30,562 nt of DNA from a bacterium (GCA_963657025.1 CAVKLS010000001.1:2529-33090), one strand, 5' to 3'; shown: positions 3,913-26,743, counted from the stretch's first letter. Program-made: numbers and translations. The notes: generated by a model from the letters alone, not told the origin.

Positions 3913-3931
3913 GAGAGTTAACTCTCTCAAC
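3908..3931. repeat. Perfect 24-bp palindrome GTTGAGAGAGTTAACTCTCTCAAC (hairpin; weak terminator or mRNA-stabilising stem)
   Basis: Sequence equals its own reverse complement; overlaps the SSB stop; no long U-tract. Confidence 0.75.
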
Positions 3932-3949
3932 TTCCTGAAGGAGGTAAAC

Positions 3950-6384: not shown

Positions 6385-6585
6385 ATGAACAATTACAACG
6401 AACTTGAGAGACTGATGAAACTAAAAGCGGAAGAACTCGAAAAAGAACTAAAATATCGCGATAATGCCAAAGAGCTTCACGCCATGTATAAGACTTATTG
6501 CAAGGTTGGTTTTACCGAACAACAGGCGTTTGAGCTGGTTAAAGTCGGATTGTATAGCGCAACATTTGCTACTTTAGGAAAATGA
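6385..6585 (+). CDS. Hypothetical protein
   Basis: GAGGTG RBS favours ATG 6385; GFTEQQAFELV motif; ATGA overlap with primase. Confidence 0.75.
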   Translation: MNNYNELERLMKLKAEELEKELKYRDNAKELHAMYKTYCKVGFTEQQAFELVKVGLYSATFATLGK

Positions 6586-7370: not shown

Positions 7371-7381
7371 GAGGAACACCA

Positions 7382-8860
7382 ATGCAGGAGTTTTTCGAAC
7401 TGCGGAACGGTCGCTGTATAATGGATGAAGATTTATCGGCGAAAATGTACTTGATTAAACAAAATCATCCTGAGAAGTCAGACGAGACATCAAGTGGCTT
7501 TGAATGGTCGGAAATGGGCATGGCTAATCTTTTCGGTTTGCTGTACTCACAGGAAGCGAGATACTGCCCCGAACACAAAAGCTGGTTTACGTATCACGAA
7601 GGAGCATGGAGACGGGACGAGGGGGCTATCCTCGTCTCGGAAAAGATAAAGGACTTTGTCCGACTGATGATTTTATATTGCGGTGAAATTGAAGACGACG
7701 ACATCCGTAAATCTTATACGACTTTCGTAAACAAGATGGGTGACAGACGGATGAGGGACAGAATCCTCAAGGACGCAACAGGAGAGCTGCGTATAGCTGC
7801 TAACGAATTCGACAGCAATCCGTATCTCATCAACTGCCTTAATGGGACGTACAACCTTGAAGACTTTACTTTCAGAGAACACAAATGGGACGACTTTCTG
7901 ACAATGCAGACTGCGTTTAAACACACGATATCACGAGATGTAAAATGCGAACGCTGGGAGACTTTCATTGACGAGGTCACACAGGGAGACAAAAACAAAG
8001 CTGACTTCTTACAGCGTGCCCTCGGTTATTCTCTTCTCGGAATGAGCAATGAGGAATGTATGTTTATTCTGCACGGCAAGACTACGAGAAACGGCAAGTC
8101 AACGTTGCTCAACACGATTGAAATAATGCTCGGCGACTACGCCAAGGTTGCGCCTGTTGGGATGATATGCAGAGGAGACAGACAGAAGGATGCAGAAGCA
8201 GCTTCCCCTACTCTTGTAGGGCTTAAGGGCAAACGCTTTGTAACAATGTCCGAAAGTAACGAGTACGGCAAGCTGGACGAGGAGAAAATCAAGCAGCTTA
8301 CAGGCGGCGAGGAGATATCAGCGAGGGCTCTGTATCAGTCGGCTATCACTTTCAAACCTCAATTCACGTTGTGGCTAAGCTGTAATGACTTGCCAATGGT
8401 CACGGATAAATCCCTTTTTGCTTCCGAGAGAATCAAGGTGGTTGAATTTAACCGCCACTTCTCACCTGAGGAACAGGACACGCACCTAAAAGACGAACTC
8501 ACTTCACCTGAAGCCATGAGCGGTATCTTTATGTGGCTGGTCCGGGGGTACATTCACTACAAAGAGCGAGGTCTCACAATGACCAAGGAGCTCAGAAAAG
8601 TTGTTATCGACTACGAAAAAGATAATGATTTGGTTCTCCAGTTCCTCGAGGCACGCTGTGAGAGAGCGGACGACACGGCGATCAAGGCTAAAGACCTTTA
8701 TTCGGCGTACAAGATTTGGGCGAAGTCAGAGGGCGCATTCATTCTATCGGCGAGAAAATTTTACTCAGAGCTTGAAAGGCATCCTGAGTGGTTCGACAGG
8801 AAATTCAAAGGACATGGTCAAATGAGTTATGAAGGACTAAAATTAACGGAGGTAATTTAA
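7382..8860 (+). CDS. D5/P4-family SF3 helicase
   Basis: INCLNGTYNL, LQRALGYSL, Walker A GKTTRNGKST, IKQLTGGEEISARALY; AGGAGG RBS supports ATG 7382. Confidence 0.92.
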   Translation: MQEFFELRNGRCIMDEDLSAKMYLIKQNHPEKSDETSSGFEWSEMGMANLFGLLYSQEARYCPEHKSWFTYHEGAWRRDEGAILVSEKIKDFVRLMILYCGEIEDDDIRKSYTTFVNKMGDRRMRDRILKDATGELRIAANEFDSNPYLINCLNGTYNLEDFTFREHKWDDFLTMQTAFKHTISRDVKCERWETFIDEVTQGDKNKADFLQRALGYSLLGMSNEECMFILHGKTTRNGKSTLLNTIEIMLGDYAKVAPVGMICRGDRQKDAEAASPTLVGLKGKRFVTMSESNEYGKLDEEKIKQLTGGEEISARALYQSAITFKPQFTLWLSCNDLPMVTDKSLFASERIKVVEFNRHFSPEEQDTHLKDELTSPEAMSGIFMWLVRGYIHYKERGLTMTKELRKVVIDYEKDNDLVLQFLEARCERADDTAIKAKDLYSAYKIWAKSEGAFILSARKFYSELERHPEWFDRKFKGHGQMSYEGLKLTEVI

Positions 8861-9361: not shown

Positions 9362-9513
9362 TGCAGTTGTCAGAAAAACAGGTAATTTATATACAAACTT
9401 GTATGAAGTGCTTTGAACATGAGAACTTTATCATTGATACCGATGAAATCAAAACAATTTCTGCCGAGAAGTTTGTCAACAGATTAAAGGAAATTGTAGA
9501 GAAAGACCAGTAG
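9361..9513 (+). CDS. Hypothetical protein (50 aa; not in ORF track)
   Basis: GAGGAGG RBS, TAATG overlap; MQLSEKQVIYIQTCMKCFEHENF...EKDQ*. Confidence 0.65.
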   Translation: MQLSEKQVIYIQTCMKCFEHENFIIDTDEIKTISAEKFVNRLKEIVEKDQ

Positions 9514-9515
9514 CC

Positions 9516-9624
9516 GGGTAGACGGGGTAGACGAAAATCACTTTTTGCGTGTAACTTCTCTTAGTACGCGCGTATTATGCAAAAGTTATACGAAAAAACC
9601 GTATTTCATCTACCCTATCTACCC
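9516..9624. repeat. Large imperfect inverted repeat, candidate replication origin
   Basis: 42-bp arms 9516-9557 and 9583-9624 (33/42 identical), each with two GGGTAGA units; central palindrome TACGCGCGTA 9565-9574; downstream of primase-helicase. Confidence 0.7.
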
Positions 9625-9672
9625 ACTAAAACAATTGTTCGTTTATTGTGATATATCAAACACGATGTAAAA

Positions 9673-9718
9673 TAGGAGTCTGTGTGGGCGTATTTTTGTA
9701 GGAGTCTGTACGGGCGCA
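9673..9718 (+). repeat. Two 20-bp direct repeats upstream of terS
   Basis: TAGGAGTCTGTGTGGGCGTA (9673-9692) and TAGGAGTCTGTACGGGCGCA (9699-9718). Confidence 0.75.
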
Positions 9719-9739
9719 CGCAGGAGAGGAGGTGAGACA

Positions 9740-10306
9740 ATGGCTAGACAAAAAGACATGAGAAAAAATAATAATCCGACTGGTAGTAAGACTATGAACA
9801 TTGAAAAAGCGTTCAAAGGTGATAGGTCTGAAATCGGTAAAATTTTGAATAATTCTTTTTATTGGTTCAATTATCCTATCGTCAAGACTGATGAAGAGTG
9901 TGCAGAAAGACTTAACGAATTCTTCAAAAGATGTGCTGATAACAACGAGTTACCGACTGTCGAGAAGATGTGTCTTGCTTTGGGAACGGTTAGAAATACT
10001 GTGTGGCAATGGGAGACAGGAGTCATAAATGTATCGCAAGAGAGGAAGAACCTAATCAAAAAAGCGAAGGAAATAATCTCTGCAATGGACGCCGAATTAG
10101 CCGCCACAGGCAAGATTCCAGTGCCGACATATATCTTCCGAGCTAAGAACTACTACGGCATGAGAGACGACCCACAGGTAGTTGTTCAAGTCAACGATAA
10201 TTCGGAGAAGGTGGATATCGAGGATATCAAAAAACGATATCTGACAGACTCACCGCCAACGACTATTGAAACGACTGCAACCGAGACGAAAGAGACAAAA
10301 GAATAA
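9740..10306 (+). CDS. terS: Terminase small subunit
   Basis: PTVEKMCLALGTVRNTVWQWE HTH and IFRAKNYYGMRD motif typical of one TerS family; GGAGGTG RBS. Confidence 0.8.
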   Translation: MARQKDMRKNNNPTGSKTMNIEKAFKGDRSEIGKILNNSFYWFNYPIVKTDEECAERLNEFFKRCADNNELPTVEKMCLALGTVRNTVWQWETGVINVSQERKNLIKKAKEIISAMDAELAATGKIPVPTYIFRAKNYYGMRDDPQVVVQVNDNSEKVDIEDIKKRYLTDSPPTTIETTATETKETKE

Positions 10307-10444
10307 GAGAATAGCCCTCACGACTTTTGAGCCGTGGGGGCTTTCTTTTTGCGTACATACGACTTTGAGACTTTCTGCCGAAGCGAACGACTCTACGACT
10401 TTCAGCGACTATCAAACGACTTTCGACTATCGACTTTTACGACT
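10260..10444. repeat. Cluster of 11 CGACT pentamers
   Basis: CGACT starts at 10260, 10272, 10321, 10360, 10388, 10396, 10406, 10417, 10424, 10431, 10440. Confidence 0.85.
10313..10350 (+). terminator. Intrinsic terminator after terS
   Basis: AGCCCTCACG...CGTGGGGGCT stem followed by TTCTTTTT. Confidence 0.8.
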
Positions 10445-10652
10445 GCTGTTCGTCTGGTTCATAGCGGAGGAAATCCCCGGGCTGGCACTCGAGAAGTCGA
10501 CACACCGTTTGAATGTTCGTCCAGCTGATGGGTTTGTTGTGTCTGAAGGCTTGTAGTGTGCTTTCAGATAATAGCTTCTCTGTTCTTATTCGATTTGTGT
10601 TGTATCCCTTATCTTTAAGGGCTTGTAAAACATTAATAGTATATATAAGCAT
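10437..10652 (-). CDS. Cro/C1-type (XRE-like) HTH regulator
   Basis: LLSESTLQAFRHNKPISWTNIQTVCRLLECQPGDFL; GAGGTGG RBS on minus strand. Confidence 0.85.
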   Translation of the reverse strand: MLIYTINVLQALKDKGYNTNRIRTEKLLSESTLQAFRHNKPISWTNIQTVCRLLECQPGDFLRYEPDEQQS

Positions 10653-10684
10653 TGTACCACCTCAATATTAAATGTAATCGATTA

Positions 10685-10718
10685 ATAATATCATATTGTT
10701 TACACGATATCAAGAGTA
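10685..10718 (-). promoter_or_regulatory. Leftward sigma-A promoter for the HTH gene with overlapping operator
   Basis: Minus strand TTGATA-N17-TATTAT (10713..10685); operator-like TACACGA-N4-AAGAGTA at 10701-10718. Confidence 0.65.
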
Positions 10719-10782
10719 AAACTATACAAAAATATCGCATTTGCTTTGTTTATTGTTACACGAAAAATAATTCAAAAAGTTA

Positions 10783-10811
10783 TTGACACTACTCGAATAA
10801 TCGTGTACAAT
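10783..10811 (+). promoter_or_regulatory. Rightward sigma-A promoter with operator in spacer
   Basis: TTGACA-N17-TACAAT; palindrome TACTCGA-ATAA-TCGTGTA at 10790-10807. Confidence 0.8.
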
Positions 10812-10895
10812 ATAATCACAGTCAAGGACAAACACCTTGATAACGAACACGGCGGCAACAAAAGCAAGTAAAAACCGAGTGGGAAAGGAGTTATA

Positions 10896-11018
10896 ATGTT
10901 TGATATGCTACGAACTGAAATTAAAGTTATTCTTAAATCGTGGATTGAATTAATCAAACGGTGTGAGAGTATAGAAAAAGCCGTTGAATTATTAGAAACA
11001 ATCTTAGAAGTACTCTAA
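10896..11018 (+). CDS. 40-aa amphipathic micro-protein (not in ORF track)
   Basis: GAAAGGAG RBS; MFDMLRTEIKVILKSWIELIKRCESIEKAVELLETILEVL*; own promoter. Confidence 0.75.
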   Translation: MFDMLRTEIKVILKSWIELIKRCESIEKAVELLETILEVL

Positions 11019-11085
11019 CAATCCAACGACAACGGGATAATATAGCCGTTATATCTTGCTTGCCCACGGTTATGTTATCACCGAT

Positions 11086-11114
11086 ATAATATCATCAAGG
11101 CAAGAGAAAAGCAA
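11086..11114 (-). promoter_or_regulatory. Convergent (antisense) promoter facing the 40-aa ORF
   Basis: Minus strand TTGCTT-N17-TATTAT with TG extension; no convincing minus-strand gene follows closely. Confidence 0.5.
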
Positions 11115-11187
11115 TAGGCAAGCGGAAATAATTTCAAGTGTGTAAATACTTAAAAGTAAATACACACTGAAAAAAGATGGATTAAAG

Positions 11188-11263
11188 ACTAAAAATATTT
11201 TGTGAAAAGGTATTGACAACTAAAAATAATTAGTATATAATGAAGTCACAAAAGAAATTTAGT
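11188..11263 (+). promoter_or_regulatory. Consensus sigma-A promoter with three operator-like palindromes
   Basis: TTGACA-N17-TATAAT (11213-11241); ACWAA-N6-TTWGT at 11188, 11219, 11248. Confidence 0.85.
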
Positions 11264-11302
11264 GCTAAATTAAACAATAAACAATAAAGTGAGGTAACCA
11301 TT

Positions 11303-11833
11303 ATGAAAAATTATTTAGAGAAGTACAATTATAGTAGGGTAGAAATGGAAAAAATAATTGAAAGGGATGACCGGCGCTATAAAGAAGCTTTGGCAGCTAT
11401 CCCGGTTATAATTAACGAATTCGGCAAATATACCGGCAGACGATACGGCGCTAGAACTAAAGAAAAAATAGCCGAGTCTATCAAAGAAAAAACAGGATTG
11501 ACAATGTATATTGACCAATGGACTTATAATGATGATATAATTGTTTATAATTACGATTGGCACAATTATAATGATAAGGTCATTATACAGCTTAAAAACC
11601 CACTAGTAGGTGGCGGCGCTCACGTGTTGATTGATAACGTTATTCAAGACTTGTCAGATGTATATTTTGATATTGCTAATGTTCACATGACAGCCGCAAC
11701 CGACGAGACCTTAGACGGGCTGGAACACCTGTTACATCGATACGCCGAACTTGAAGAGTCTATTAGAAGCGTATGCAAGGCGTATAATGAATTGAAGCCG
11801 TCCAGCGCTAGAGGATTATATTATAACGGCTAA
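11303..11833 (+). CDS. Hypothetical protein (176 aa), AT-rich accessory gene
   Basis: GAGGT RBS, dedicated consensus promoter; no recognised domain. Confidence 0.8.
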   Translation: MKNYLEKYNYSRVEMEKIIERDDRRYKEALAAIPVIINEFGKYTGRRYGARTKEKIAESIKEKTGLTMYIDQWTYNDDIIVYNYDWHNYNDKVIIQLKNPLVGGGAHVLIDNVIQDLSDVYFDIANVHMTAATDETLDGLEHLLHRYAELEESIRSVCKAYNELKPSSARGLYYNG

Positions 11834-11846
11834 AACAAAATAAAGC

Positions 11847-11875
11847 TTGACATTTTCCATCGTTCTATCTATCAT
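11847..11875 (+). promoter_or_regulatory. Sigma-A promoter for the 26-aa peptide gene
   Basis: TTGACA-N17-TATCAT. Confidence 0.7.
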
Positions 11876-11895
11876 CAAATAAAGGGGGCTTATAT

Positions 11896-11976
11896 ATGTG
11901 CTTTTTAAAATTAATGTTCGGTGGTCCGCTGTTGCTTCTGGGTATCATCTTCAACAGCTCAAAAAAATATAAATGA
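11896..11976 (+). CDS. 26-aa hydrophobic peptide with basic tail (not in ORF track)
   Basis: AAAGGGGG RBS; MCFLKLMFGGPLLLLGIIFNSSKKYK*; flanked by promoter and terminator. Confidence 0.65.
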   Translation: MCFLKLMFGGPLLLLGIIFNSSKKYK

Positions 11977-11982
11977 GATTAA

Positions 11983-12010
11983 AGCCCCGATTTTATCGGG
12001 GCTCTTTTTT
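11983..12010 (+). terminator. Intrinsic terminator
   Basis: AGCCCCGA-TTTTA-TCGGGGCT followed by CTTTTTT. Confidence 0.9.
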
Positions 12011-12021
12011 GCCCTTTTCCC

Positions 12022-12139
12022 GATATGCTGTTTACAAGCGTTTTAAAGCCCTTTAAGGGCTTTTCTTTTTGCCTATGAAAACTCATTGCTTAAAGTCTAA
12101 CCGCTCTAAAAACCGCCTTAAAATCAAAGTATGAACGTT
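12022..12139 (-). repeat. ~120-bp structured element, copy B (inverted relative to 6247-6366)
   Basis: Reverse complement shares GATTTTAAGGC, TAAGYAATGARTTTWCAT and CTTTAAAACGCT blocks at near-identical spacing with copy A. Confidence 0.75.
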
Positions 12140-12152
12140 TCAAATGGTTTAC

Positions 12153-12275
12153 ACCGCCACGGGGTACAGATTGAGAACGGCGGGGCGGCGGTCTTCCGTG
12201 TCTGAAGCCGTCCGAGGGGATACCCCCCGGAGGGGGAAACGGGCACCCGCTCAGGCGGTCGGAATACCTGTCTGA
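12153..12275. other. GC-rich non-coding patch, candidate packaging (pac/end) signal
   Basis: Abrupt GC-rich stretch with GGGGATACCCCCCGGAGGGGG inside an AT-rich island between terS and terL. Confidence 0.35.
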
Positions 12276-12304
12276 ATATCTGAAAAAATAAAAAAGATTG
12301 GCTA

Positions 12305-12333
12305 TTGACATTTCATTAAAAACAGACTATACT
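12305..12333 (+). promoter_or_regulatory. Sigma-A promoter of HTH-resolvase operon
   Basis: TTGACA-N17-TATACT. Confidence 0.8.
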
Positions 12334-12368
12334 GTTATTAACAGGTAAACATGTTAGGAGAAAACACA

Positions 12369-12620
12369 ATGACAGCTAAAGAAATAATCGTCGAAGCAAT
12401 GAAAGTAAGAGGATACAATCAGACAATGCTTGCAAAAGAAGCGGGACTGAAAAGACAGTCTAATGTCAGTGAAATGCTCAGAGGTAAGAGTATGCGAGTC
12501 GATAACTTTGTATTGTTGCTTGACAGCATGAATTTTGATATAATAATAAAAGACCGAAACGGAGCTAACAGCACAAAGTGGGTGCTTGAAAACGCTGTGT
12601 CCGAGGACGAACCGAAATGA
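12369..12620 (+). CDS. XRE-family HTH protein
   Basis: GYNQTMLAKEAGLKRQSNVSEMLR; AGGAG RBS favours ATG 12369. Confidence 0.8.
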   Translation: MTAKEIIVEAMKVRGYNQTMLAKEAGLKRQSNVSEMLRGKSMRVDNFVLLLDSMNFDIIIKDRNGANSTKWVLENAVSEDEPK

Positions 12621-13195
12621 TTTACGGTTACGCAAGAGTGAGCACCAAAGGACAGGCGAAAGACGGAAACAGTCTCGAGTATCAAACGAGGGTGTTGGAG
12701 GAAGCAGGAGCGGAGAGAATATTCTGTGACAGCTTTACGGGAACGAAGATAGACAGACCCGAGTTTGATAAGCTGAAATCTTGTTTGGTAAGCGGAGACA
12801 AGCTGATAGTGACGAAGCTTGACCGACTGGCAAGGAGTGCGGCACAGGGCAGTGAATTAATCGAGAGCCTGATTAAAGACGGTGTAACGGTGCACATACT
12901 CAATATGGGAGTGATGGATAATACGCCGACAGGAAAGTTAATAAGAACAATAATGTTAGGATTTGCCGAGTTCGAGAGGGATATGATAGTCCAAAGAACG
13001 CAAGAGGGCAAAGAGGTTGCAAGGAGCAAAGGTATCAGAGTAGACGGAAGACCGAAGCTGAAAATACAAAAAGAGCTTGCCGAAAAAATTCTCGAAAAAC
13101 AAAAAAGGGGAGAAATGACGGTAGACGATTGTATCAAGCAGTTGGGAGTAAGTCGGAGTTACTGGTACAAGGTTGTTGCAAAAGGATTGATGTAA
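12617..13195 (+). CDS. Small serine recombinase (resolvase/invertase family)
   Basis: YGYARVSTKGQ catalytic Ser motif, VTKLDRLARS, FAEFERDMIVQRTQEG, GRP and C-terminal HTH. Confidence 0.95.
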   Translation: MIYGYARVSTKGQAKDGNSLEYQTRVLEEAGAERIFCDSFTGTKIDRPEFDKLKSCLVSGDKLIVTKLDRLARSAAQGSELIESLIKDGVTVHILNMGVMDNTPTGKLIRTIMLGFAEFERDMIVQRTQEGKEVARSKGIRVDGRPKLKIQKELAEKILEKQKRGEMTVDDCIKQLGVSRSYWYKVVAKGLM

Positions 13196-13236
13196 AGTGC
13201 GTTATCGCAAGTAAAAAGGCGGTAGCGTGCTTTTTT
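13194..13236 (+). terminator. G:U-rich terminator-like hairpin directly before terL
   Basis: AAAGTGCGTTATCGC / GCGGTAGCGTGCTTT stem running into TTTTTT. Confidence 0.65.
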
Positions 13237-13251
13237 GTTATGGAGGTTTAT

Positions 13252-14895
13252 ATGAATTTAACAGACGAGATAATGAGTAAAATCAAGGTTGGGAATGAGA
13301 TATATTTTGATTTTCAGCCGTACGAGGATATGTATTTAATTGCAAAGGAGAAAATAAAAGAGGGCGATAAATACGCATTTGAGAGATTGAAAGAAGTCTC
13401 GGAGATAATAATCAACCACATAGGGGAGTTTAAGGACGGCGATATAAGAAGAGTATGGGAGCTGCACAAGAAGATTTTGCTAACACTGGCGAGAAATGAT
13501 TTTGACAGTTTTCTCTTGTATATCGAGTGGAACAGAGAGCCGAAGTCAAAGTTTTATGTTCCGAGAAGAAAGCAGCTGTTGCCGCTGGTGGAAGCACTGC
13601 AAGACTTAGAGGACGATAACTTAGACTTGCTTGCAATATCAATGCCACCCGGAACAGGAAAGAGTACGCTTGCGATATTTTATTTAACTTGGATATCGGG
13701 AAGGCATCCGAACGAGCCGAACTTAGGCGGTTCTCACTCCAACAGCTTTTTGAGGGGCGTATATGATGAGTGCTTGAGAATAATCACGGGAAACGGCGGC
13801 GAATATCTGTGGGGAGATGTTTTTCCTGAGGTGAAGCTGAAGAACACAAACGCAAAGGACATGAGAATAGACCTTGATAAGCCGCAGAGATTTGAAACGC
13901 TGGAGTTTTCATCTATCGGTTCGGGCAATGCGGGTAAAGTGCGTGCAATGAGATTGCTTTATTGTGATGACTTGGTAGACGGAATAGAAACGGCGATGTC
14001 GGCGGAAAGATTAAATAAACTCTGGCAGCAGTACACAACGGATTTAAGACAGAGAAAGATAGGCAAGTGTAAAGAGCTGCATATCGCCACAAGGTGGAGC
14101 GTGCACGATGTTATCGGAAGACTCGAAAGACAGTACCGAGACAATCCGAGGTGTAAGTTTATTGTTTGTGCGGCACTGGATGAGAATGACGAAAGCAATT
14201 TTGACTATCCTTGCGAGGGCGGATTCACCACGCAGATGCTGAGAGAACAGCGTGACATTATGGACGAAGTCTCTTGGAGAGCCCTGTTTATGAATGAGCC
14301 GATAGAAAGAGAAGGCTTGCTGTATCACGAGGACGAATTAAGAAGATACTTTGAATTGCCTGATTCAGAGCCCGACGCCGTTATAGCAGTGTGCGATACC
14401 AAAGACCGAGGAAGCGACTACTGCGTTTTGCCTGTTGCATACGTTTACGGCAATGATTATTACATTGCCGATTGTATATGCGATAACGGAAATCCTGAAA
14501 TAATAGATGTGAGGATATGGCAGGCACTTGTAAACAACCGTGTGCAGATGGCAAGGTTTGAGTCTAACTCAGCGGGCGGCAGAGTGGCAAAGGATGCACA
14601 GACAGCGGTAAACGAACACGGCGGTATCTGTAAAATCACAACCAAATTCACAACGGCAAACAAGGAAACTAAGATTGTTACCAACTCACCGTTTGTCAAA
14701 GAACATTTTCTTTTCAAGGACAAGAGTCTGTATAAGCCAAACACGGACTACGGAAAGATGATGACAATGCTGTGTGGTTACACAATGGCGGGTAAAAACA
14801 AGCACGATGACGTCCCTGATGCAATGGCAATGTTATCAGATTATGCTCAGAGTTTCGGCAGACAGGAAGTCAGAGTATTTAACAGACCTTTTTGA
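13252..14895 (+). CDS. terL: Terminase large subunit
   Basis: Walker A SMPPGTGKS, Walker B LLYCDD, ATRW coupling motif, nuclease HDDVPDA; GGAGGT RBS supports ATG 13252. Confidence 0.95.
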   Translation: MNLTDEIMSKIKVGNEIYFDFQPYEDMYLIAKEKIKEGDKYAFERLKEVSEIIINHIGEFKDGDIRRVWELHKKILLTLARNDFDSFLLYIEWNREPKSKFYVPRRKQLLPLVEALQDLEDDNLDLLAISMPPGTGKSTLAIFYLTWISGRHPNEPNLGGSHSNSFLRGVYDECLRIITGNGGEYLWGDVFPEVKLKNTNAKDMRIDLDKPQRFETLEFSSIGSGNAGKVRAMRLLYCDDLVDGIETAMSAERLNKLWQQYTTDLRQRKIGKCKELHIATRWSVHDVIGRLERQYRDNPRCKFIVCAALDENDESNFDYPCEGGFTTQMLREQRDIMDEVSWRALFMNEPIEREGLLYHEDELRRYFELPDSEPDAVIAVCDTKDRGSDYCVLPVAYVYGNDYYIADCICDNGNPEIIDVRIWQALVNNRVQMARFESNSAGGRVAKDAQTAVNEHGGICKITTKFTTANKETKIVTNSPFVKEHFLFKDKSLYKPNTDYGKMMTMLCGYTMAGKNKHDDVPDAMAMLSDYAQSFGRQEVRVFNRPF

Positions 14896-14904
14896 CAAGA
14901 TAAT

Positions 14905-14933
14905 TTGACAAGTGATGACAAATATGGTATAAT
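14905..14933 (+). promoter_or_regulatory. Consensus sigma-A promoter with extended -10
   Basis: TTGACA-N17-TATAAT with TG; embedded among four GACAA repeats. Confidence 0.85.
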
Positions 14934-14939
14934 TAAGAC

Positions 14940-15076
14940 AAAGTTAATATGTGATATATTATATAGCAGCATGTTTACCTCATGTTTGTTTTGGGCGGGT
15001 TTCGCACTCGTTCGTTGATTGTTTAGAGAAAGACACTTTTGTGTAGTAGTTATACAAGGGGTCTTTCTCTTTTTTT
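14940..15076 (+). ncRNA. Candidate ~135-nt trans-acting antisense sRNA
   Basis: Bounded by consensus promoter and terminator; no sense gene with RBS; 5' part complementary to 3941-3962; G:U-rich hairpin 14993-15013. Confidence 0.6.
15025..15076 (+). terminator. Intrinsic terminator upstream of portal
   Basis: AGAGAAAGAC...GTCTTTCTCT stem with inner pairing, followed by TTTTTT. Confidence 0.8.
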
Positions 15077-15101
15077 ATGTGAAAGAAAGGGAGTGAGTGA
15101 A

Positions 15102-16547
15102 ATGGGCAATCAGATTGATGATACAAAAGGGCTTGAAAATACAAGGTTTATGCACGGCAGACGGATTATTAAGTCAAGTGAGAAGGAAATCACCGATGAG
15201 AACATAATGAGAGTGCTGTGGAAAGCTTTAGAAACTCACTACCTCAACCGAGGCGAGATTGATTATCTTTACAAATACTATCGAGGAGACCAGCCGATAG
15301 TACACAGGACAAAGGAAATTCGTTCTGAGATATGCAATAAGATAGTTGAAAACAGAGCAAATGAGATTGTTTCTTTCAAGGTGGGTTATCTCTGCGGAGA
15401 GCCGATACAGTATGTGAGCCGAAACGGAGACGAAAACACCGTAGCAGAGGTTAATCTTCTCAACGAGTACATGTTTGCAGAGGATAAATCAGCGCAAGAC
15501 CAGAGCATAGTCGAGTGGCAGATGATTTGCGGCACGGCGTACAGACTTGTACTTCCTGACCCGATAGGGGAAGAAGACGAAGCACCTTTTGAGATGTACA
15601 CGCTTGACCCACGAGATACATTCGTTGTTTACTCGAATGAAATCGGCAATAAGCCGCTTATGGCGGTAAAGTATGCAATGGATGACGACACAATCACACA
15701 TTATTCGGTGTACACGAAAGACAAGTACTATCTTATCAGCAATGATTTGATGATAGAGTCAAGACCGCACGCACTCGGGATGATACCGATAATCGAGTAT
15801 CCCGCAAATAACGCAAGGCTTGGTTCATTTGAGATTGTAATGCCGCTCTTGGATGCGATTAACAATGTCGAGAGTAACAGAATGGACGGTATCGAGCAGT
15901 TCGTTCAAGCGTATTGGAAGTTCGTTGGATGTGATATCGATATGGACAAGTTCAACGAGTTTAAGGAAGCGGGCGCAATTCTCGTTCCGCCGTCAACAAG
16001 CGGCGGCAATGTGGATGTAGACCTTATTGTTAAGGAGCTCAATCAGTCTCAGTCGCAGACCTACAAGGACGATTTGTACAGTGCAGTTTTGACAATCTGC
16101 GGAATGCCGAACAGAAACGGCGGGTCCTCAACGAGTGACACAGGTTCGGCGGTTTTACTGCGAGACGGATGGTCGGATGCCGAAGCGAGAGCGAAGGACA
16201 GCGAAAATGTTTTCAAGCGTGCCGAAAAGCAGATGTTGAAGCTTGTACTCAAAATATGCCGAGAGCTTGGCGATAGCACATTAAAGCTCAGCGACATTGA
16301 TATGAAGTTCACACGCCGCAACTATGAAGCAATTCAGAGCAAGTCACAGGTTCTTATTTCAATGCTGCAAGAGCCGAAGATACACCCACAGCTTGCGTTC
16401 CAACACAGCGGTATGTTCTCGGATGCCGAGAGTGCTTACTCAATGAGTATGAAGTACTACGAAGAGCAGAAAGACAACTGGAGACCGATAAGTCTTGAGG
16501 AAGAGGTAGAGAATGTCGACGAAAAGGCAGATGTACAGCAGAGCTGA
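15102..16547 (+). CDS. Portal protein, SPP1 gp6-like
   Basis: YYRGDQPI...NKIVENRANEIV...GYLCGEPI, IPIIEY; position after terL; AAGGGAG RBS favours ATG 15102. Confidence 0.92.
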   Translation: MGNQIDDTKGLENTRFMHGRRIIKSSEKEITDENIMRVLWKALETHYLNRGEIDYLYKYYRGDQPIVHRTKEIRSEICNKIVENRANEIVSFKVGYLCGEPIQYVSRNGDENTVAEVNLLNEYMFAEDKSAQDQSIVEWQMICGTAYRLVLPDPIGEEDEAPFEMYTLDPRDTFVVYSNEIGNKPLMAVKYAMDDDTITHYSVYTKDKYYLISNDLMIESRPHALGMIPIIEYPANNARLGSFEIVMPLLDAINNVESNRMDGIEQFVQAYWKFVGCDIDMDKFNEFKEAGAILVPPSTSGGNVDVDLIVKELNQSQSQTYKDDLYSAVLTICGMPNRNGGSSTSDTGSAVLLRDGWSDAEARAKDSENVFKRAEKQMLKLVLKICRELGDSTLKLSDIDMKFTRRNYEAIQSKSQVLISMLQEPKIHPQLAFQHSGMFSDAESAYSMSMKYYEEQKDNWRPISLEEEVENVDEKADVQQS

Positions 16548-17301
16548 TGAGCTGATAGTTTACCTTAAGAAATATGTCAAAAACGAATTTAATCAAATGG
16601 GGAATGTCGGATTTGACGAATTAAATGTACTCAATGCGAAAACAAAGGTCGAAACGCTGTACACAAGACTTCAAAACGAGAACTTGAAGATTTACAAAGA
16701 CGCCGCTCAGAGTGCGGAAAAATTCGCACTAATGCTTATCGAATTGATGAAACAGGGATATCCTGAGTCTTCACTCGACGGGCTTGTAGGATTAACCACG
16801 CTTGCACTGAGCCGAAGAATTAAGAAAAGCACAATAGACACGGCAGATGTCGAAGAGTATATCAAAAAGAACGCAAAGAGCGTGAAAGCGGACGGCAAAA
16901 GCGGTATCGGTTCGGATAAATGGGTTAAGCATTATTTAGGCTTATACAACAAAACAACGGGCTATCTTTACGAGTCGGAAGCAGACCGAAAGAGAATGAG
17001 ATACACCGAGCAGATACTCACAGCTAAAGAGTACTCAGACCGCAAGATGTACAATGACAGCACAAATAAAAGTGCTTCACTGTGGTACTTGCAATCAGAG
17101 CAGTATCTGATAGGTGCAGTTGATGAAGCAACAATTGATACCTACAAAGCAAACGGAGTTAAAGAGGTTATGTGGCTAACCGAGATGGACGACAGAGTTT
17201 GCAAGAGCTGCAACGAATTGCACGGCAAAGTTTATAAAATCGGCAATGTACCGCCGAAGCCACATATACGATGCAGATGTTACCTTATACCGATAGGGTA
17301 A
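16513..17301 (+). CDS. Minor head protein (SPP1 gp7 / Mu F-like)
   Basis: WLTEMDDRVCKSCNELHGK...PPKPHIRCRC. Confidence 0.88.
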   Translation: MSTKRQMYSRADELIVYLKKYVKNEFNQMGNVGFDELNVLNAKTKVETLYTRLQNENLKIYKDAAQSAEKFALMLIELMKQGYPESSLDGLVGLTTLALSRRIKKSTIDTADVEEYIKKNAKSVKADGKSGIGSDKWVKHYLGLYNKTTGYLYESEADRKRMRYTEQILTAKEYSDRKMYNDSTNKSASLWYLQSEQYLIGAVDEATIDTYKANGVKEVMWLTEMDDRVCKSCNELHGKVYKIGNVPPKPHIRCRCYLIPIG

Positions 17302-17311
17302 TTGAGATATA

Positions 17312-17394
17312 GGTCAGAGAAGACCGTAAAACGCAGACAACAGACAGAGAAGTCTAAAATCGCAAACAAAGTCACAGAAGACACTAAAAGACAA
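17312..17394 (+). promoter_or_regulatory. Three tandem mini-hairpins with A(G/C)AGAA loops in scaffold leader
   Basis: GGTC-AGAGAA-GACC, AGAC-AGAGAA-GTCT, GTC-ACAGAA-GAC at ~29-nt period. Confidence 0.6.
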
Positions 17395-17406
17395 GGAGAA
17401 ACTCAG

Positions 17407-18000
17407 ATGAAAATTGACATTTCAAAAATCAAAGGTTATAGGGATATGACCGATGAGGAGAAGATAAAAGCACTCGAAGCATACGAAACAGAGGTTGATT
17501 ATTCAGGATATGTTCGTAAAGAAGTGTTTGACAAGACAGCTTCCGAGTTGGCGGCAAAGAAGAAAGAGCTTAACGAGAAGTTATCTGAAGACGAAAAGGC
17601 AAAGCAGAAAGAGAAAGAAGAGCTTGAAAATCTTCAGACAGCGTACGAGAAACTTCTCAGAGAGAGCGAAGTCTCTAAGTATAAGGCTAATTTCCTCGGT
17701 ATGGGTTATGAGGACAAGCTGGCAGAGGCAACCGCCGTAGCAATGGTGGACGGAGACACCGAAGCAGTGTTTGCCAATCAGAAGAAGCACCTTGAAAATG
17801 TCAAGAAGAGTATGAGGGCAGAGCTCCTAAAAGATACACCAAAACCCACAGGGGACGGAGACTCAAAGACAATGACGCTTGATAAGTTTAGAAAGCTCTC
17901 ACCACTCGAGCGTGAAAGTTGGTCGAGAAAGAACCCTGAGGAATATAAAACACTTTACACAGAGAAAAATACAGACAAAGGAGAAATGAATAATGGCTAA
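17407..18000 (+). CDS. Capsid scaffold protein
   Basis: Charged coiled-coil, directly before major capsid; AAGGAG RBS supports ATG 17407. Confidence 0.8.
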   Translation: MKIDISKIKGYRDMTDEEKIKALEAYETEVDYSGYVRKEVFDKTASELAAKKKELNEKLSEDEKAKQKEKEELENLQTAYEKLLRESEVSKYKANFLGMGYEDKLAEATAVAMVDGDTEAVFANQKKHLENVKKSMRAELLKDTPKPTGDGDSKTMTLDKFRKLSPLERESWSRKNPEEYKTLYTEKNTDKGEMNNG

Positions 18001-18793
18001 TAAGGTCTATGATAACTTTTATCTCTCAAATGAGATTGAAGACCAGTACAATTCACACCTTGATTTACAGAACTTTTGCACTGTTGATAACTCACTTGTG
18101 GGCACAGCGGGAATGATTCGCAAGATTAATGTTTACAAGGCAACAAACGGCACAGAGAAGCTTGACATGGGCGAGGGTAACACAAAGTCAATCGAGGTAT
18201 CTTACAGCCCTGAGGAGTACAAGATTCTTCTTGCACAGAACAGATTTAAGTACTATGACGAGCAGGATATGACAGACCCAATGCTTGTACCGGTCGGTGT
18301 AAGACACATGGGTACAGACATGTTCAATACTGTTAATGCTGATATCTTTGCAGAGTTCAATAAGGCAACTCAGACTGTATCCGTTACAAAGATTGATTTT
18401 GGCGCATTTGCAGACGCCGTAGCTACACTTAATATCGACGGCACAGATAATGAGCCTGAGTCCACAGCACCGCAGTGCTTTGCGTTTGTTTGCCCAGCGG
18501 ATATGGCAACACTCAGAAAGAGCCTTAACGAAGACCTCAAGTATGTTGAATCATTCGCAAGAACAGGCTATGTCGGCACAGTTGCGGGTGTAAACCTTTA
18601 CACAAAGAAGGACGCAGTGAGCGGTACAATCGTCGTTGCAACAAAGGATGCTGTTACACTCTTCAACAAGAAGGGCACAGAGGTTGAGCAGGAGAGAGAC
18701 GCAGATACCCGTGAGAACAGCATTTGGTCGAGAAAGTACTATATCGCCGCACTCACAGACGACACTAAGGCAGTAAAGATTGTAAAGTCTTAA
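17993..18793 (+). CDS. Major capsid protein
   Basis: Position, size (266 aa), VDNSLVGTAG and VEQERD motifs. Confidence 0.88.
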   Translation: MANKVYDNFYLSNEIEDQYNSHLDLQNFCTVDNSLVGTAGMIRKINVYKATNGTEKLDMGEGNTKSIEVSYSPEEYKILLAQNRFKYYDEQDMTDPMLVPVGVRHMGTDMFNTVNADIFAEFNKATQTVSVTKIDFGAFADAVATLNIDGTDNEPESTAPQCFAFVCPADMATLRKSLNEDLKYVESFARTGYVGTVAGVNLYTKKDAVSGTIVVATKDAVTLFNKKGTEVEQERDADTRENSIWSRKYYIAALTDDTKAVKIVKS

Positions 18794-18812
18794 GAGAATG
18801 TAGGAGGACAAC

Positions 18813-19130
18813 ATGACGGAAGATGAAAAGTTAATTACGCTTGAAGCAATGGTTGACGGTTCGGAAAGCACTGAAGTGTTGTCCGTATACTTAAAAATAG
18901 CGGGACGAAAGATAATTGCGAGAGCGTATCCGTACGATTCGAGCGTAACGGAAGTACCGACAAGGTACGATATGTTACAGTGTGAGATAGCCGCCTATCT
19001 TCTGAATAAAAGAGGAGCAGAGGGACAGACGAGTCACACAGAGAACGGTATCACACGAGCCTATGGCGGCGCAGATGTGCCCGAAGCAATGTTATCGGCA
19101 GTTGTTCCCAGAGTGGGGATGATGTCATGA
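18813..19130 (+). CDS. Head-tail connector (SPP1 gp15-like)
   Basis: NKRGAEGQTSHTENG motif; position. Confidence 0.8.
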   Translation: MTEDEKLITLEAMVDGSESTEVLSVYLKIAGRKIIARAYPYDSSVTEVPTRYDMLQCEIAAYLLNKRGAEGQTSHTENGITRAYGGADVPEAMLSAVVPRVGMMS

Positions 19131-19519
19131 GAACATTGAAGCGAAACAGAGTTAAGTGTTATTACTCTTGCTATGAGGGTGAGAAGCTTGTGACCAATGC
19201 CGAGGGATATTATACGGGAGAAAAGGAACTCACATATTCTAAGCCCGTTATGCTTATGGCTAATATCTCACAGGCGACAGGTTTATCGTCAACAGAGCAG
19301 TTCGGCGGCAATTTGGATTATGACAAGTCTATAGTGCTTGACAGATGTCCTAAAGGCTTTGACGAGTACAGCAGACTATGGATAGATACAATGCCGACGC
19401 TTAACAAAGACGGAACAACGGACACGCCCCACGATTATACTGTAAAGCGAATAGCGAGAAGCTTAAACAGCATATCGATAGCCGTAGCAAAGGTGAATAT
19501 TCAGAATGAAAGAAATTGA
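19127..19519 (+). CDS. Putative head-closure protein
   Basis: Position and size in neck module; ATGA overlap. Confidence 0.6.
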   Translation: MRTLKRNRVKCYYSCYEGEKLVTNAEGYYTGEKELTYSKPVMLMANISQATGLSSTEQFGGNLDYDKSIVLDRCPKGFDEYSRLWIDTMPTLNKDGTTDTPHDYTVKRIARSLNSISIAVAKVNIQNERN

Positions 19520-20030
19520 AATCACACTCGATACGAAGTCGATAACAGAAGCAATCAAAGAGATAGAACGCTATAAGCAGTCACTTGACACGAAATCGGA
19601 GAAATTGAGAGTCAGAATAGCGGAGCTTGTAAAAGAGAAAGCACAGAGCGGTTTTGACGGTTCTGTAGTCAGTGTGAATAAATATACAGGAGACGGATAC
19701 ACTTCTGATATTGAAGTCACTTGGGAAGACGAGGACGAAAAATCCGTGCTTGTAGTGGCAAGAGGTGACGAAGTAGCTTTTATCGAGTTTGGCGCAGGTA
19801 TTCACTTCAATGGGACGGGTTCGCCGCACCCTGACGGTGAGAGACTGGGGCTTACAATCGGTTCTTACGGCGAGGGCAAGGGCAATCGAGATTTTTGGGT
19901 ATACTACAACGGCGAAGACAAAAAGGAATATACATACGGTACACAATCAACAATGCCGCTTTACAGAGCGTTGTGTGATGTGGCAGACGATATAGTGGCG
20001 ATAGCAAGGGAGGTGTTCGGCAGTGATTGA
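19506..20030 (+). CDS. Putative neck/tail-completion protein (HK97 gp10-like)
   Basis: AFIEFGAG motif; position. Confidence 0.65.
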   Translation: MKEIEITLDTKSITEAIKEIERYKQSLDTKSEKLRVRIAELVKEKAQSGFDGSVVSVNKYTGDGYTSDIEVTWEDEDEKSVLVVARGDEVAFIEFGAGIHFNGTGSPHPDGERLGLTIGSYGEGKGNRDFWVYYNGEDKKEYTYGTQSTMPLYRALCDVADDIVAIAREVFGSD

Positions 20031-20421
20031 CTTAGAAGCAAAGATTTTTACAGGCTGTTATGAAGCAATCAACAAAGAATATCCGAATTGTGATGTCACG
20101 AGTGAATATGTGAGTTCTCCGAGCAAAATGCCGCACGTCAGCATAGTTGAGAAAGACAATGCAGTGTGGAGAAACACTTCGGACGAGATTACAGAAAATC
20201 ACGTAACACTCACTTATGAAGTCAATGTGTATTCCAACAAAACAACGGGAAAGAAAACTGAAGCAAAGGCGATATTCGCAGTCGCTGATAAAGCTTTGGA
20301 AGAAATGGGACTCAGAAGAACATCACTGAACGAGTCACCGAATTTATACGACACGTCAATATACAGGCTAACGGCACGGTACAGGTGCGTAGCCGACAAC
20401 GATTATGTTTACAGGAGGTAA
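20023..20421 (+). CDS. Putative tail terminator protein
   Basis: MPHVSIVE, YEVNVYSNK motifs; immediately before tail tube gene. Confidence 0.7.
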   Translation: MIDLEAKIFTGCYEAINKEYPNCDVTSEYVSSPSKMPHVSIVEKDNAVWRNTSDEITENHVTLTYEVNVYSNKTTGKKTEAKAIFAVADKALEEMGLRRTSLNESPNLYDTSIYRLTARYRCVADNDYVYRR

Positions 20422-20427
20422 ATCATT

Positions 20428-20958
20428 ATGGGTAAGGGAATGAACTCATATTCAACACAGCTTGCTTATGCAGATGTTACAGGTAAGGCACTCGATCCAA
20501 CTGATTTTAAGAGAGTTATCCGTATCAAGGACTACGGTGACCTTATGGGCGCACCTGAAAGCCTTGAGACAACAGACCTTGAGGATGCAATGACCACCAA
20601 CACACAGGGTATCAAGCAGTCCGATGCACTCGAGTTTACATACAACTACACTAAGGCGAATTACACCGCCGCAAAGAAGCTTGAGGACGGCAAGGAGCAC
20701 GCTTTTGCGCTTCACTTTAACGGCACATTTGCAAGCACCGCCGCAGATGCAGCAGTAACGGCAGAGGGTTCTGACGGAGTGTTCTACTTCTTAGGAACTC
20801 TTTCAGTCGGTATCTCAGGGGCAGGAGTAAACGAGGTTCGAGAGGGCACAATCACTATTTCACAGTCAACCGAGGTGTATGGATGTGACCCTGTTACAAC
20901 AGAGGGCACAGGTGCGCTTGGCGCGCTTAACGCTGCGCAGGGCTGGTCTAAGGGCTAA
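20428..20958 (+). CDS. Major tail tube protein
   Basis: DLMGAPESLETTDL...GIK...LEFTYNY; AGGAGGT RBS; position. Confidence 0.85.
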   Translation: MGKGMNSYSTQLAYADVTGKALDPTDFKRVIRIKDYGDLMGAPESLETTDLEDAMTTNTQGIKQSDALEFTYNYTKANYTAAKKLEDGKEHAFALHFNGTFASTAADAAVTAEGSDGVFYFLGTLSVGISGAGVNEVREGTITISQSTEVYGCDPVTTEGTGALGALNAAQGWSKG

Positions 20959-20999
20959 AAATTAATAAAAGTTGCTTATCAATAAGGAGGAATAAGGAT

Positions 21000-21329
21000 A
21001 TGGCAAAGACACTTGGATTTACATATAAGGGAGTAGATTATACTCTCGAGTTCACAAGAAAGACCGTAGCGAGAATGGAGCAGGACGGTTTTGCAATCTC
21101 CGATATCGGAGAGAAGCCTATGACACTTTTACCCGAGTTATTCGCTGGTGCATTCAAGGCTAATCACCCGTTTATTCGCAAGGAGCTTGTAGACGAGATT
21201 TTCGGCAAGTTTACAAACAAGTCGGAGCTCATCGCAAAGCTTGCTGAGATGTATAACGAGCCGATAGCGGCACTTGTGGAAGAGCCTGAGGACGACGAGG
21301 GAAACATAGCTTGGACTCTGAATTGGTAA
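21000..21329 (+). CDS. Tail assembly chaperone (lambda gpG-like)
   Basis: Between tail tube and tape measure; slippery G GGA AAC at 21299-21305. Confidence 0.82.
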   Translation: MAKTLGFTYKGVDYTLEFTRKTVARMEQDGFAISDIGEKPMTLLPELFAGAFKANHPFIRKELVDEIFGKFTNKSELIAKLAEMYNEPIAALVEEPEDDEGNIAWTLNW

Positions 21330-21784
21330 GCGACTCAGACAATCCGAAAGAAGAGAAGGGGGAAGACGAGTCTAATATTGATTCATCTTCCCTTTTAGCT
21401 TACACAAACACGTTTAACAAAAGTTTTCCGTACTATCTTTCAATCGGAATGAGTTATGAAGAATACTGGGAGAAGGACGCCGATTTGGTGATAGCTTATC
21501 GCAGAGCGGACGAATATAGGAGAGAAAGAAAAAATCAGGAATTATGGTTGCAAGGCTTGTATGTTTATACGGCAATGGCTAATCTCTCTCCGATATTTCA
21601 CGATTTTGCGAAAAAGGGCACAAAAGCAGAGCCTTATCCCGATAAGCCGTATCCGATAACTCCGAAAGAAGCGAGAGAAGAAAAAGAGAGAAAAGAACGG
21701 GAAAGATTTAACAGACTTATGTCTTATATGAAGGGAAAACAGGGGATAAAAACAGAAGAGGAGGTGACGGAAGATGTCGATTAA
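21311..21784 (+). CDS. Tail assembly chaperone extension (gpT-like), probably made as a -1 frameshift fusion
   Basis: Lies in the -1 frame relative to 21000..21329 and is open from the slippery site; YLSIGMSYEEYW motif. Confidence 0.78.
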   Translation: MDSELVSDSDNPKEEKGEDESNIDSSSLLAYTNTFNKSFPYYLSIGMSYEEYWEKDADLVIAYRRADEYRRERKNQELWLQGLYVYTAMANLSPIFHDFAKKGTKAEPYPDKPYPITPKEAREEKERKERERFNRLMSYMKGKQGIKTEEEVTEDVD

Positions 21785-26690: not shown

Positions 26691-26728
26691 CGGTGTGCGG
26701 TGTGCTTTAGGGTGCACCGCAAATGCCG
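26691..26728 (+). other. Intergenic stem-loop without U-tract
   Basis: TGCGGTGTGC / GTGCACCGCA stem with G:U pairs between TMP stop and next RBS. Confidence 0.55.
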
Positions 26729-26743
26729 ATAAAGGAGATTAGA

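Follow-up and report, generated by a model that had tools for sequence, protein, structure and literature searches.

A probable conditional-termination cassette before the portal gene of a group of Firmicute phages, and the complementarity of its leader to two translation starts

In phage lambda, and likewise in phages 21, 82, phi80 and P22, a strong late promoter (PR') and, no more than about 100-200 nt further on, an intrinsic terminator (tR') stand ahead of a long late operon; by default these temperate phages make a short terminated RNA, which in lambda is the 6S RNA. We describe here an element of the same layout at positions 14940-15076 of a 30,562-nt stretch of phage DNA from a bacterial assembly (GCA_963657025.1). 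This stretch, which we call the window, comprises bases 2529-33090 of a 33,090-bp phage contig (CAVKLS010000001.1) on which all genes run rightward. The element likewise combines a strong promoter, an intrinsic terminator and a long late operon, and here too a phage, probably temperate, would by default make a short terminated RNA. The two systems also differ. Lambda-type phages have a Q antiterminator, whereas none was found for the window phage; their cassette lies after Q and before the lysis genes, whereas that of the window lies between the genes for the large terminase and the portal protein. Unlike the lambdoid hosts, the host here is a Firmicute, judging by its use of Shine-Dalgarno (SD) sequences and by the hosts of cultured relatives, and read-through in the window is a prediction.

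Two other phage RNAs invite comparison. The c4 antisense RNA of phages P1 and P7 blocks a ribosome binding site (RBS) through two short, separate blocks of complementarity; it is cut from the same transcript as its target and serves immunity, and in these respects differs from the leader described here. The put RNA of phage HK022 is, like the window leader, a structured leader just 3' of a phage promoter and 5' of terminators. It differs in having two stem-loops that act only in cis, on RNA polymerase, and Rfam comparison at E<=1 gave no similarity between put and the window leader.

A further parallel is StxS, a small RNA (sRNA). According to its description (PMC7547250), StxS binds Hfq, arises in Stx phages by processing of the terminated PR' transcript, represses stx1B at its RBS and activates rpoS; lambda 6S RNA is made in the same way, as the terminated PR' product; and although short late-promoter-terminator RNAs are known in lambdoid coliphages, a function is assigned there to StxS alone. 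The likeness to our candidate is that of a terminated late-leader by-product pairing in trans, including at the RBS of a phage gene (stx1B). StxS is proteobacterial, Hfq-dependent and RNase E-processed and acts on the host gene rpoS and a late toxin gene, whereas the candidate targets in the window, predicted from sequence alone, are an early phage gene without a known family and a gene for a helix-turn-helix (HTH) regulator.

The cassette before the portal gene

Directly after the stop codon of the large-terminase gene lies a consensus sigma-A promoter, P1 (14905-14933, plus strand), with TTGACA, a 17-nt spacer, TATAAT and a TG before the -10 element; it matches the consensus at 12/12 positions and has a predicted start near 14940. 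A terminator scan found no terminator-like site between this stop codon and P1. A second candidate promoter, P2 (14933-14960, plus strand), consists of TTAAGA, 16 nt and TATATT, with TGTG forming a TRTG-type extended -10 element (9/12 with TG). The leader, or short RNA, predicted from these starts occupies 14940-15076 on the plus strand and would measure about 135 nt from P1 and about 108 nt from P2. The RNA 14940-15078 folds with a z score of -4.57, and none of 200 shuffled sequences folds as well. At about +11 to +21 of P1 stands the -10-like sequence TGTGATATATT, a candidate for the pause element that lambda-type late leaders have in their initially transcribed region; it is present in the window only and not in its two closest relatives (see below).

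The 3' part of the leader contains two plus-strand hairpins. The first, hairpin 2 (14992-15014), has 8-9 bp, the loop UUCGC and a U-rich tail at 15015-15024 (UUGAUUGUUU). Because it was scored as terminator-like together with this tail, it may be a first, weak terminator, and the cassette probably holds tandem terminators. The second is the main intrinsic terminator (15025-15076), a predicted 20-bp hairpin (15025-15070) followed by a T-run, which ends 25 nt 5' of the portal ATG. The portal SD sequence, GGGAGTGAG, and the ATG at 15102 span 15089-15104 on the plus strand, and the gene itself (15102-16547, plus strand) matches phrog_64 (portal, 1.3e-74). A preliminary description of this DNA had taken the predicted promoter-to-terminator unit of about 135 nt for the leader of the portal operon, and its position directly 5' of the portal RBS bears this out.

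Within 15.5 kb there is no other plus-strand promoter-like site to serve the late genes: in 15000-30562 the strongest reaches 10/12, none reaches 11/12 or more, and site counts are at the level of shuffled sequence. Because of this, and because the terminator lies 25 nt before the portal ATG, we infer that the late genes are reached by read-through of the terminator from P1 or from further upstream. Rfam gave no match in the window at the gathering score and only chance-level ones at E<=1 (9400-15300), and a tRNA/tmRNA scan found none.

Leaders that can be aligned with that of the window occur in only two other loci, L083 (large terminase 96% identical) and L082 (93%), both from the genome collection. 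Conserved in all three are the promoter and the portal SD sequence and, between them, the stretch UUUACCU(C/U)AU, a hairpin of 8 bp, a linker rich in U and the terminator. They also fold alike, with z scores of -4.6 to -5.8 (L083 -5.0, L082 -4.6). An RNAalifold comparison of the three revealed that, of the eight pairs in hairpin 2, three are changed on both sides, three on one side and none is broken, and that its loop UUCGC is conserved. Among the 20 pairs of the terminator one is changed on both sides, five on one side and two are broken.

These features are best explained as a whole if the element is a control cassette, of the conditional-termination type, for the late operon of portal, head and tail genes, and we consider this reading on balance probable. 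P1, perhaps with a second start at P2, would initiate strongly and constitutively to give a leader of about 110-135 nt; transcription would stop by default at the tandem terminators (15014-15076), leaving a short RNA of 75-135 nt, and some factor would allow conditional read-through into the portal gene. The short RNA would be the counterpart of lambda 6S RNA and, if it pairs at the RBS of gene 3950 and with the HTH mRNA, of StxS. The two parts of this reading differ in strength. We are confident of the role in cis, as a late leader resembling PR'/6S/tR'. That the short RNA also pairs in trans, as StxS does, with the RBS of gene 3950 and the 5' end of the HTH mRNA and so blocks initiation is a possibility that we hold tentatively, at rather less than even weight.

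Several observations weigh against the cassette reading. Read-through could be mere leakiness of the terminator. The gene directly upstream encodes the large terminase and not a regulator. No Q antiterminator was found: Pfam families PF06530 and PF03589 have no match in the assembly (79.65% complete, phage contig included), and PHROGs and Pfam identified no antiterminator among the genes of the window. One further candidate, the open reading frame (ORF) at 11303-11833, was rejected. It has no Pfam, PHROG, PDB-sequence or Atlas match, its only homologue being itself, and in blastn the similarity to L083 and L082 breaks off at the start codon of this ORF, implying that it is not a core regulator.

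The same hairpins could also be read differently. Hairpin 2 might be a cis-acting antiterminator RNA of the put type, in which case the terminator would stop only transcripts arriving from upstream and no short RNA would accumulate. The covariation of hairpin 2 and its conserved loop fit this idea, as does the insulation from the terminase operon that the terminator would give the late operon. However, there is one hairpin here against two in put, Rfam yielded no match at E<=1, distant relatives have a single large hairpin only, and hairpin 2 carries its own U-rich tail and was scored as terminator-like. We therefore regard a put-like element as improbable.

The layout is not confined to phages whose leaders align, and this also speaks for the cassette. 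A search of IMG/VR with the portal protein returned 68 loci, of which the 63 with at least 260 nt of upstream sequence were used for layout counts. A hairpin of -10 kcal/mol or lower with a T-run precedes the portal gene in 43 of the 63; most of these hairpins lie between -22 and -41 kcal/mol and end 22-37 nt before the portal start. A promoter matching at least 10/12 positions precedes the portal gene in 40/63, and promoter and terminator occur in the right order in 32/63. Seven more loci (L026-L028, L030-L033) have TATAAT with a preceding TGG together with a terminator, bringing the count to 39/63. The layout is mostly missing where portal identity is 57% or less. Of the 13 loci that a terminase search brought in, 10 have, on reading by eye, promoter, leader and hairpin with T-run in this order before the next gene.

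The layout thus recurs in relatives whose intergenic DNA does not align with that of the window. Indeed, when the intergenic region was compared by blastn with the 68 IMG/VR loci, it matched the window's own copy only, and scans of IMG/VR with exact and degenerate leader patterns gave no matches. A search of 400 genomes of the same family for the leader returned short promoter-like matches only; a metagenome scan gave seven loci at 65-74% terminase identity, none with an alignable leader; and the phage collection held no DNA relative of the window. We regard as solid the conclusion that the cassette is a family-wide, so far undescribed late control region; a narrow literature search found no counterpart in Firmicute phages, which is not a claim that none is in print.

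Several details of the related loci deserve record. In L001-L039, L062, L065, L075 and L085, whose portals match that of the window at about 70-78%, the pre-portal hairpin keeps its sequence (GGGTGCATGATTGCACGAGG ... CCTC ... GTCATGCACCC) while its flanks vary, and its T-run is 4 to 14 long. Conservation of sequence beyond the stem suggests that the hairpin may be recognized by a protein. Loci L026-L033 have, 5' of the portal gene, a 17-nt direct repeat (GTACCCTTATAGTGGTA) that occurs twice, once over the -10 element and once about 20 nt downstream, a tandem -10-like arrangement resembling P1 and P2 of the window. After the terminase gene of L078, L079, L080 and L086, the gene next to the promoter and leader encodes a small zinc ribbon (CPxC ... 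CRYC, about 43 amino acids) that resembles Mu Com, and the leaders contain CCUUCC or ACCUCC stretches paired to GGAGG-like stretches. In Clostridium phage Maintenon, whose portal is 43% identical, what precedes the portal gene is a small ORF and a short hairpin; no consensus promoter was seen when this pre-portal region was read.

Complementarity to two translation starts

The preliminary description had proposed that this leader is also a trans-encoded anti-RBS RNA which silences a chain of early genes, and the strings and coordinates on which it based this claim all proved correct when checked against the sequence. The seed of the leader, CATGTTTACCTC (14970-14981, plus strand), is the exact reverse complement of GAGGTAAACATG (3941-3952), which holds the SD sequence and ATG of gene 3950. 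A second segment, the 5' block TGTGATATAT (14950-14959, plus strand, overlapped by P2), is the exact reverse complement of ATATATCACA (3953-3962). The two would therefore pair with 22 contiguous nt of target 1 (3941-3962, plus strand), from -9 to +13 around the AUG, covering the SD sequence, the ATG and codons 2-4 of gene 3950-4396. Within the leader 10 nt separate the blocks and would form a bulge; none separate them in the target. The seed also pairs, over 13 bp with one G:U (14969-14981), with AGGTAAACATGTT at 12343-12355 on the plus strand. This target 2 corresponds to nt +3 to +16 of the mRNA predicted from a promoter at 12305-12333, two bases before the SD sequence of the HTH gene.

In its predicted fold the leader is built like a base-pairing sRNA: the 5' part, rich in A and U and unpaired, would present UUUACCUC and is followed by a covarying hairpin and a terminator. 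The seed, which is both anti-SD and anti-AUG, has its core UUUACCU (14974-14980) in a predicted 7-nt loop, and this core is invariant in the three leaders. Opening it would cost 0.03 kcal/mol, so that the prediction of an unpaired anti-SD seed in the preliminary description is upheld; in the folds of all three leaders the seed is unpaired or in a loop.

We then asked how readily such matches arise by chance. The 12-mer by itself lacks significance: 404 of 1000 dinucleotide shuffles of the 5' part of the leader find an equally scoring contiguous helix somewhere in the window, and matches of 12-13 nt are common in the 2.08-Mb assembly (E about 1-5). The two-block match is a different matter. An all-against-all scan of the window for inverted pairs with each block at least 8 nt long and one gap of at most 15 nt returned two pairs, the 22-nt match of leader and gene 3950 and another of 16 nt. 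None of 2000 shuffled leaders reached a 22-nt two-block match (mean 13.0, sd 1.5, maximum 19), which places it far beyond the shuffled controls. It is also the top match of this kind in the whole assembly (379 contigs, both strands), where the next have 18, 17 and 17 nt. The two-block match is not chance. The 16-nt pair joins two intergenic regions, 9540-9555 and 10755-10780 (8+8 nt, also with a 10-nt gap), and is of chance-level size.

Energies, calculated with duplexfold and separately computed opening energies, give a more mixed picture. Among 38 phage start regions gene 3950 comes out on top by raw duplex energy (-37.1 kcal/mol), a value equalled by 5 of 300 shuffles. The leader/3950 duplex proper has -25.3 kcal/mol, and opening would cost 9.2 kcal/mol in the leader and 3.2 kcal/mol in the target, leaving a net of about -13 kcal/mol. 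Assembly-wide, raw duplex energy puts gene 3950 only eighth of 5414 candidate start regions, which counts against a role in trans. The top host match by this measure, on contig C158, falls on a chromosomal two-component-system contig without significant DNA similarity to the leader, and we treated it as chance.

These statistics are an argument for the view that the unit is a dedicated sRNA gene, its role as a leader being secondary: the product would use both blocks to bind gene 3950 and the seed to bind the 5' end of the HTH mRNA, and would so shut off translation of the coupled early gene chain. Pairing from -9 to +13 is the usual span for blocking of the 30S subunit, the seed is predicted to be open, and StxS offers a precedent (PMC7547250). 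The space after the terminator, however, does not accommodate a separate portal promoter, and the unit cannot therefore be an sRNA gene only. Taken with the data from relatives given below, this makes a dedicated sRNA gene somewhat doubtful.

The repeats might also act as DNA or encode peptides, rather than pair as RNA. The inverted repeats 12343-12353 and 14970-14980 flank the invertase gene and an outward-facing promoter and could be crossover sites; in the Salmonella H segment, inverted repeats likewise flank an invertase gene and an outward promoter. The exact inverted repeat, however, is 11 bp long, one of 17 comparable pairs in 3 kb, and lacks dyad symmetry, and its orientation is the same in all three phages; the dyad-symmetric sites of about 26 bp and the two orientations of Hin/Gin-type invertible segments were not found. 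The coding alternatives are a 43-codon ORF on the minus strand behind GAGGTAAACATG, which has a perfect SD sequence and ATG, and a 15-codon ORF on the plus strand (ATG 14971), which is in frame in L083. The minus-strand ATG, however, is lost in L083 and L082, and the plus-strand ORF has no SD sequence and loses its ATG in L082. We consider all of these explanations very improbable.

Two further observations concern the sequences themselves. With at most one mismatch, TGTGATATAT occurs nine times in the window against 1.67 expected (none of 100 shuffles reaches nine); its exact copies are at 3953-3962 (minus strand), 9647-9656 (plus strand, intergenic, before the small-terminase gene) and 14950-14959 (plus strand). 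The enrichment partly reflects a promoter element. An operator function for TGTGATATAT was considered and dropped, its placement in L083 and L082 being inconsistent, and the reading as a -10 element was kept. In the HTH gene, a further in-frame ATG behind AGGTAAAC precedes by 18 nt the start that aligns with L083 (ATG 12369, behind AGGAG; window 12351-12369), and it is to this upstream pseudo-start region that the leader is complementary.

Predicted pairing in the closest relatives

In L083 and L082 the evidence on pairing in trans divides. A stretch of 22 nt that holds the 5' block and the bulge (14949-14970, plus strand) is unique to the window and forms a gap in the alignment with both relatives. 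The letters of the 5' block are at the same time those of a TRTG/-10 promoter element that related phages use: TGTGATATATTATA forms the -10 region of the post-terminase promoter exactly in L078, with one mismatch in L079 and with two mismatches each in L080, L086 and L004. Because of this, and because TTAAGA lies 16 nt before it in the window, the 5' block may be, or may have been, a second promoter. The leader of L083 pairs with its own orthologue of gene 3950 no better than expected by chance (58 of 500 shuffles), and that of L082 does so at 49 of 500 and has no significant partner at all (857 of 1000). Seven distant leaders, tested over 4-21 kb per locus, gave no significant pairing (76 to 279 of 300 shuffles reach their scores). 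All of these points tell against a role in trans.

Other observations tell in its favour. The L083 leader forms an 18-bp helix, with two G:U pairs, with the SD sequence and AUG of its own HTH gene. This is the top helix in the 21.5-kb locus (score 36, next 24) and is reached by 3 of 1000 shuffles or, when scored by alignment, 1 of 500. In each of the three phages no contiguous partner of the leader surpasses the HTH start region, even though the HTH proteins of the window and L083 are identical at only 25 of 75 residues and their 5' untranslated regions (UTRs) do not align. In the window, the leader has GC before AUGUUUACC and both targets have CAUG; in L083 the leader has AU and both targets CAUAU. 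This change from C-G to U-A at both targets is suggestive of covariation between seed and target. It rests on two phages, as no more than three leaders are alignable, and this is again a point on the other side.

The helix with the HTH gene could have an explanation in cis. A single HTH/invertase/large-terminase mRNA, starting near 12340, would carry the seed in its 3' UTR, and pairing of 12343-12355 with 14969-14981 would tune HTH translation or mRNA stability. In line with this, there is no terminator-like site between the terminase stop codon and P1 and none before 15014-15076, the complementary site falls in the window at the very start of the HTH mRNA and in L083 on the SD sequence and AUG, and the L083 helix is significant. 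The window helix, however, has 13 bp only and is not significant alone, the far stronger match to gene 3950 is left unexplained, and a partner 2.6 kb away would compete poorly with an abundant short RNA from P1. We think pairing of this kind improbable.

The dedicated sRNA gene considered above gains from the L083 helix and from the shared preference for the HTH start, and loses through the lineage-specific 5' block, the failure of target 1 pairing to persist in L083 or L082, the absence of significance in the seven distant leaders and the presence in the target 2 operon of the large terminase, which is needed late. The claim of the preliminary description that the RNA silences the early gene chain in trans is to be judged on the same grounds and is partly supported. 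Its two-block match, its predicted open seed and the position of the unit before the portal RBS stand; the relatives weaken it, the 5' block being specific to the window lineage and pairing with gene 3950 being without significance in L083, L082 and distant leaders.

A more serious competitor is a purely historical origin of the complementarity. The seed would then be what is left of an inverted duplication of the gene 3950 start, the 5' block would be the TRTG/-10 element of P2 acquired by recombination with an L078-type phage, and the RNA would be a leader only. The occurrence of TGTGATATATTATA in L078 and its kin is as expected if so, and pairing is not maintained in L082 or distant relatives. 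Further evidence comes from a comparison across phages: the reverse complement of window leader 14970-14997 matches the 5' UTR and SD sequence of the L083 orthologue of gene 3950 at 24 of 28 positions, a score reached by 4 of 5000 dinucleotide shuffles. Pairing within one phage cannot explain this alignment, which suggests that the seed region may have begun as an inverted copy of the 3950 start region, an origin that fits an antisense regulator and a relic alike. The target-side sequence ATATCACA is the older, as the L083 orthologue of gene 3950 begins ATGACATATCACA; the gene encodes 148 amino acids in both phages, with roughly a third of residues identical.

There are nevertheless several difficulties with a relic. 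The evidence for duplication is modest, since one unrelated AT-rich tile of the approximately 950 natural L083 tiles scores as high. The 22 paired positions of the window are perfect between unrelated flanks, although leader and target both show differences from L083 at several of these positions; from a neutral relic one would expect decay in the window as well. A promoter element would match the 10 bases beside the seed target by chance with a probability of about 1e-5, and dinucleotide shuffles never reach the match. We give a relic without pairing function substantial weight, if still short of even.

The duplication can also be combined with function. The leader would then be a working anti-RBS RNA derived from an inverted duplication of an early-gene start region, with contacts that are still changing: the window lineage would have gained the 10-nt block through a 22-nt insertion, and L083 would have extended its pairing to the HTH gene. 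As the promoter is constitutive, this RNA would be made in lysogens, where it would hold down translation of leaky early messages and of recombinase-operon messages, a layer of prophage maintenance tied to an antitermination switch. We regard this scheme as rather unlikely. What the data show is how the sequence is built, that it is conserved, that the hairpins covary and how the complementarity compares with chance; transcript ends, termination, read-through and pairing in the cell we infer from these. Our preferred reading remains that of a late-operon control cassette whose short RNA may, with less confidence, pair in trans.

Lifestyle, gene context and significance

The preliminary description linked late-operon transcription to silencing of early genes, and this timing fits poorly: target 2 heads an operon that includes the large terminase, which is needed late, and silencing that operon late would be counter-productive. 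About 7 kb past the early genes, the contigs of both closest relatives, L082 and L083, carry a tyrosine integrase (one of these contigs is 628 kb long), and the phage group is therefore probably temperate. Given this probable lifestyle and a promoter that requires no activator, production of the RNA in lysogens, where lambda 6S RNA and StxS are also made, appears at least as likely as the late timing.

The order of genes in the window begins with DNA polymerase, Erf, a RecE-like exonuclease, small unknown genes (from 3950), primase/helicase and the small terminase (9740). There follow three small inserted units with consensus promoters of their own, the HTH gene (12369), the invertase (12617) and the large terminase (to 14895), and then the element, the portal gene (15102) and the head and tail genes. 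Gene 3950-4396, which encodes 148 amino acids, heads a chain of overlapping small genes; it has no known family and no Atlas match, and one relative (96% identical) was found among 5.8 billion proteins. A perfect palindromic hairpin lies just 5' of target 1 (3909-3930, plus strand), and its L083 counterpart has compensatory changes, as read from the alignment. The HTH gene (12369-12620) heads the operon of HTH, serine invertase and large-terminase genes. The remainder of the assembly uses SD sequences and lacks SusD, and the cultured phages with related portals all infect Firmicutes.

Some other features of the window were seen in passing. The DNA polymerase is split into overlapping ORFs (3-716 and 713-2389), as is the primase (6582-7370 and 7340-8860), and ORF 713-2389 has an Erf-like annealing domain fused C-terminally (phrog_1252 residues 4-317, phrog_155 residues 313-556). 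Between the terminase genes, an insert at 11847-12072 comprises a consensus-like promoter (TTGACA, 17 nt, TATCAT), a hydrophobic ORF of 26 amino acids (ATG 11887, MCFLKLMFGGPLLLLGIIFNSSKKYK) with the SD sequence AAAGGGGG, and two terminators, each with a T-run (11983-12003 and 12045-12063); it is a small membrane-peptide unit. A promoter at 10783-10811 (11/12) precedes an ORF of 40 amino acids (10897-11019) with the SD sequence GGAAAGGAG, which the default ORF list had missed.

Overall, these data show that a large clade of uncultured Firmicute phages from gut and rumen carries a cassette of this same logic between the genes for large terminase and portal, and suggest that conditional termination may control their late genes through a factor other than Q. 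In the annotation of such phages, the cassette marks the start of the late operon. If the short RNA acts at ribosome binding sites, the use of an antitermination by-product as a regulator would extend to Gram-positive phages and, if true, this would be one of the rare cases in which close relatives show how an sRNA and its target are rebuilt as a pair.

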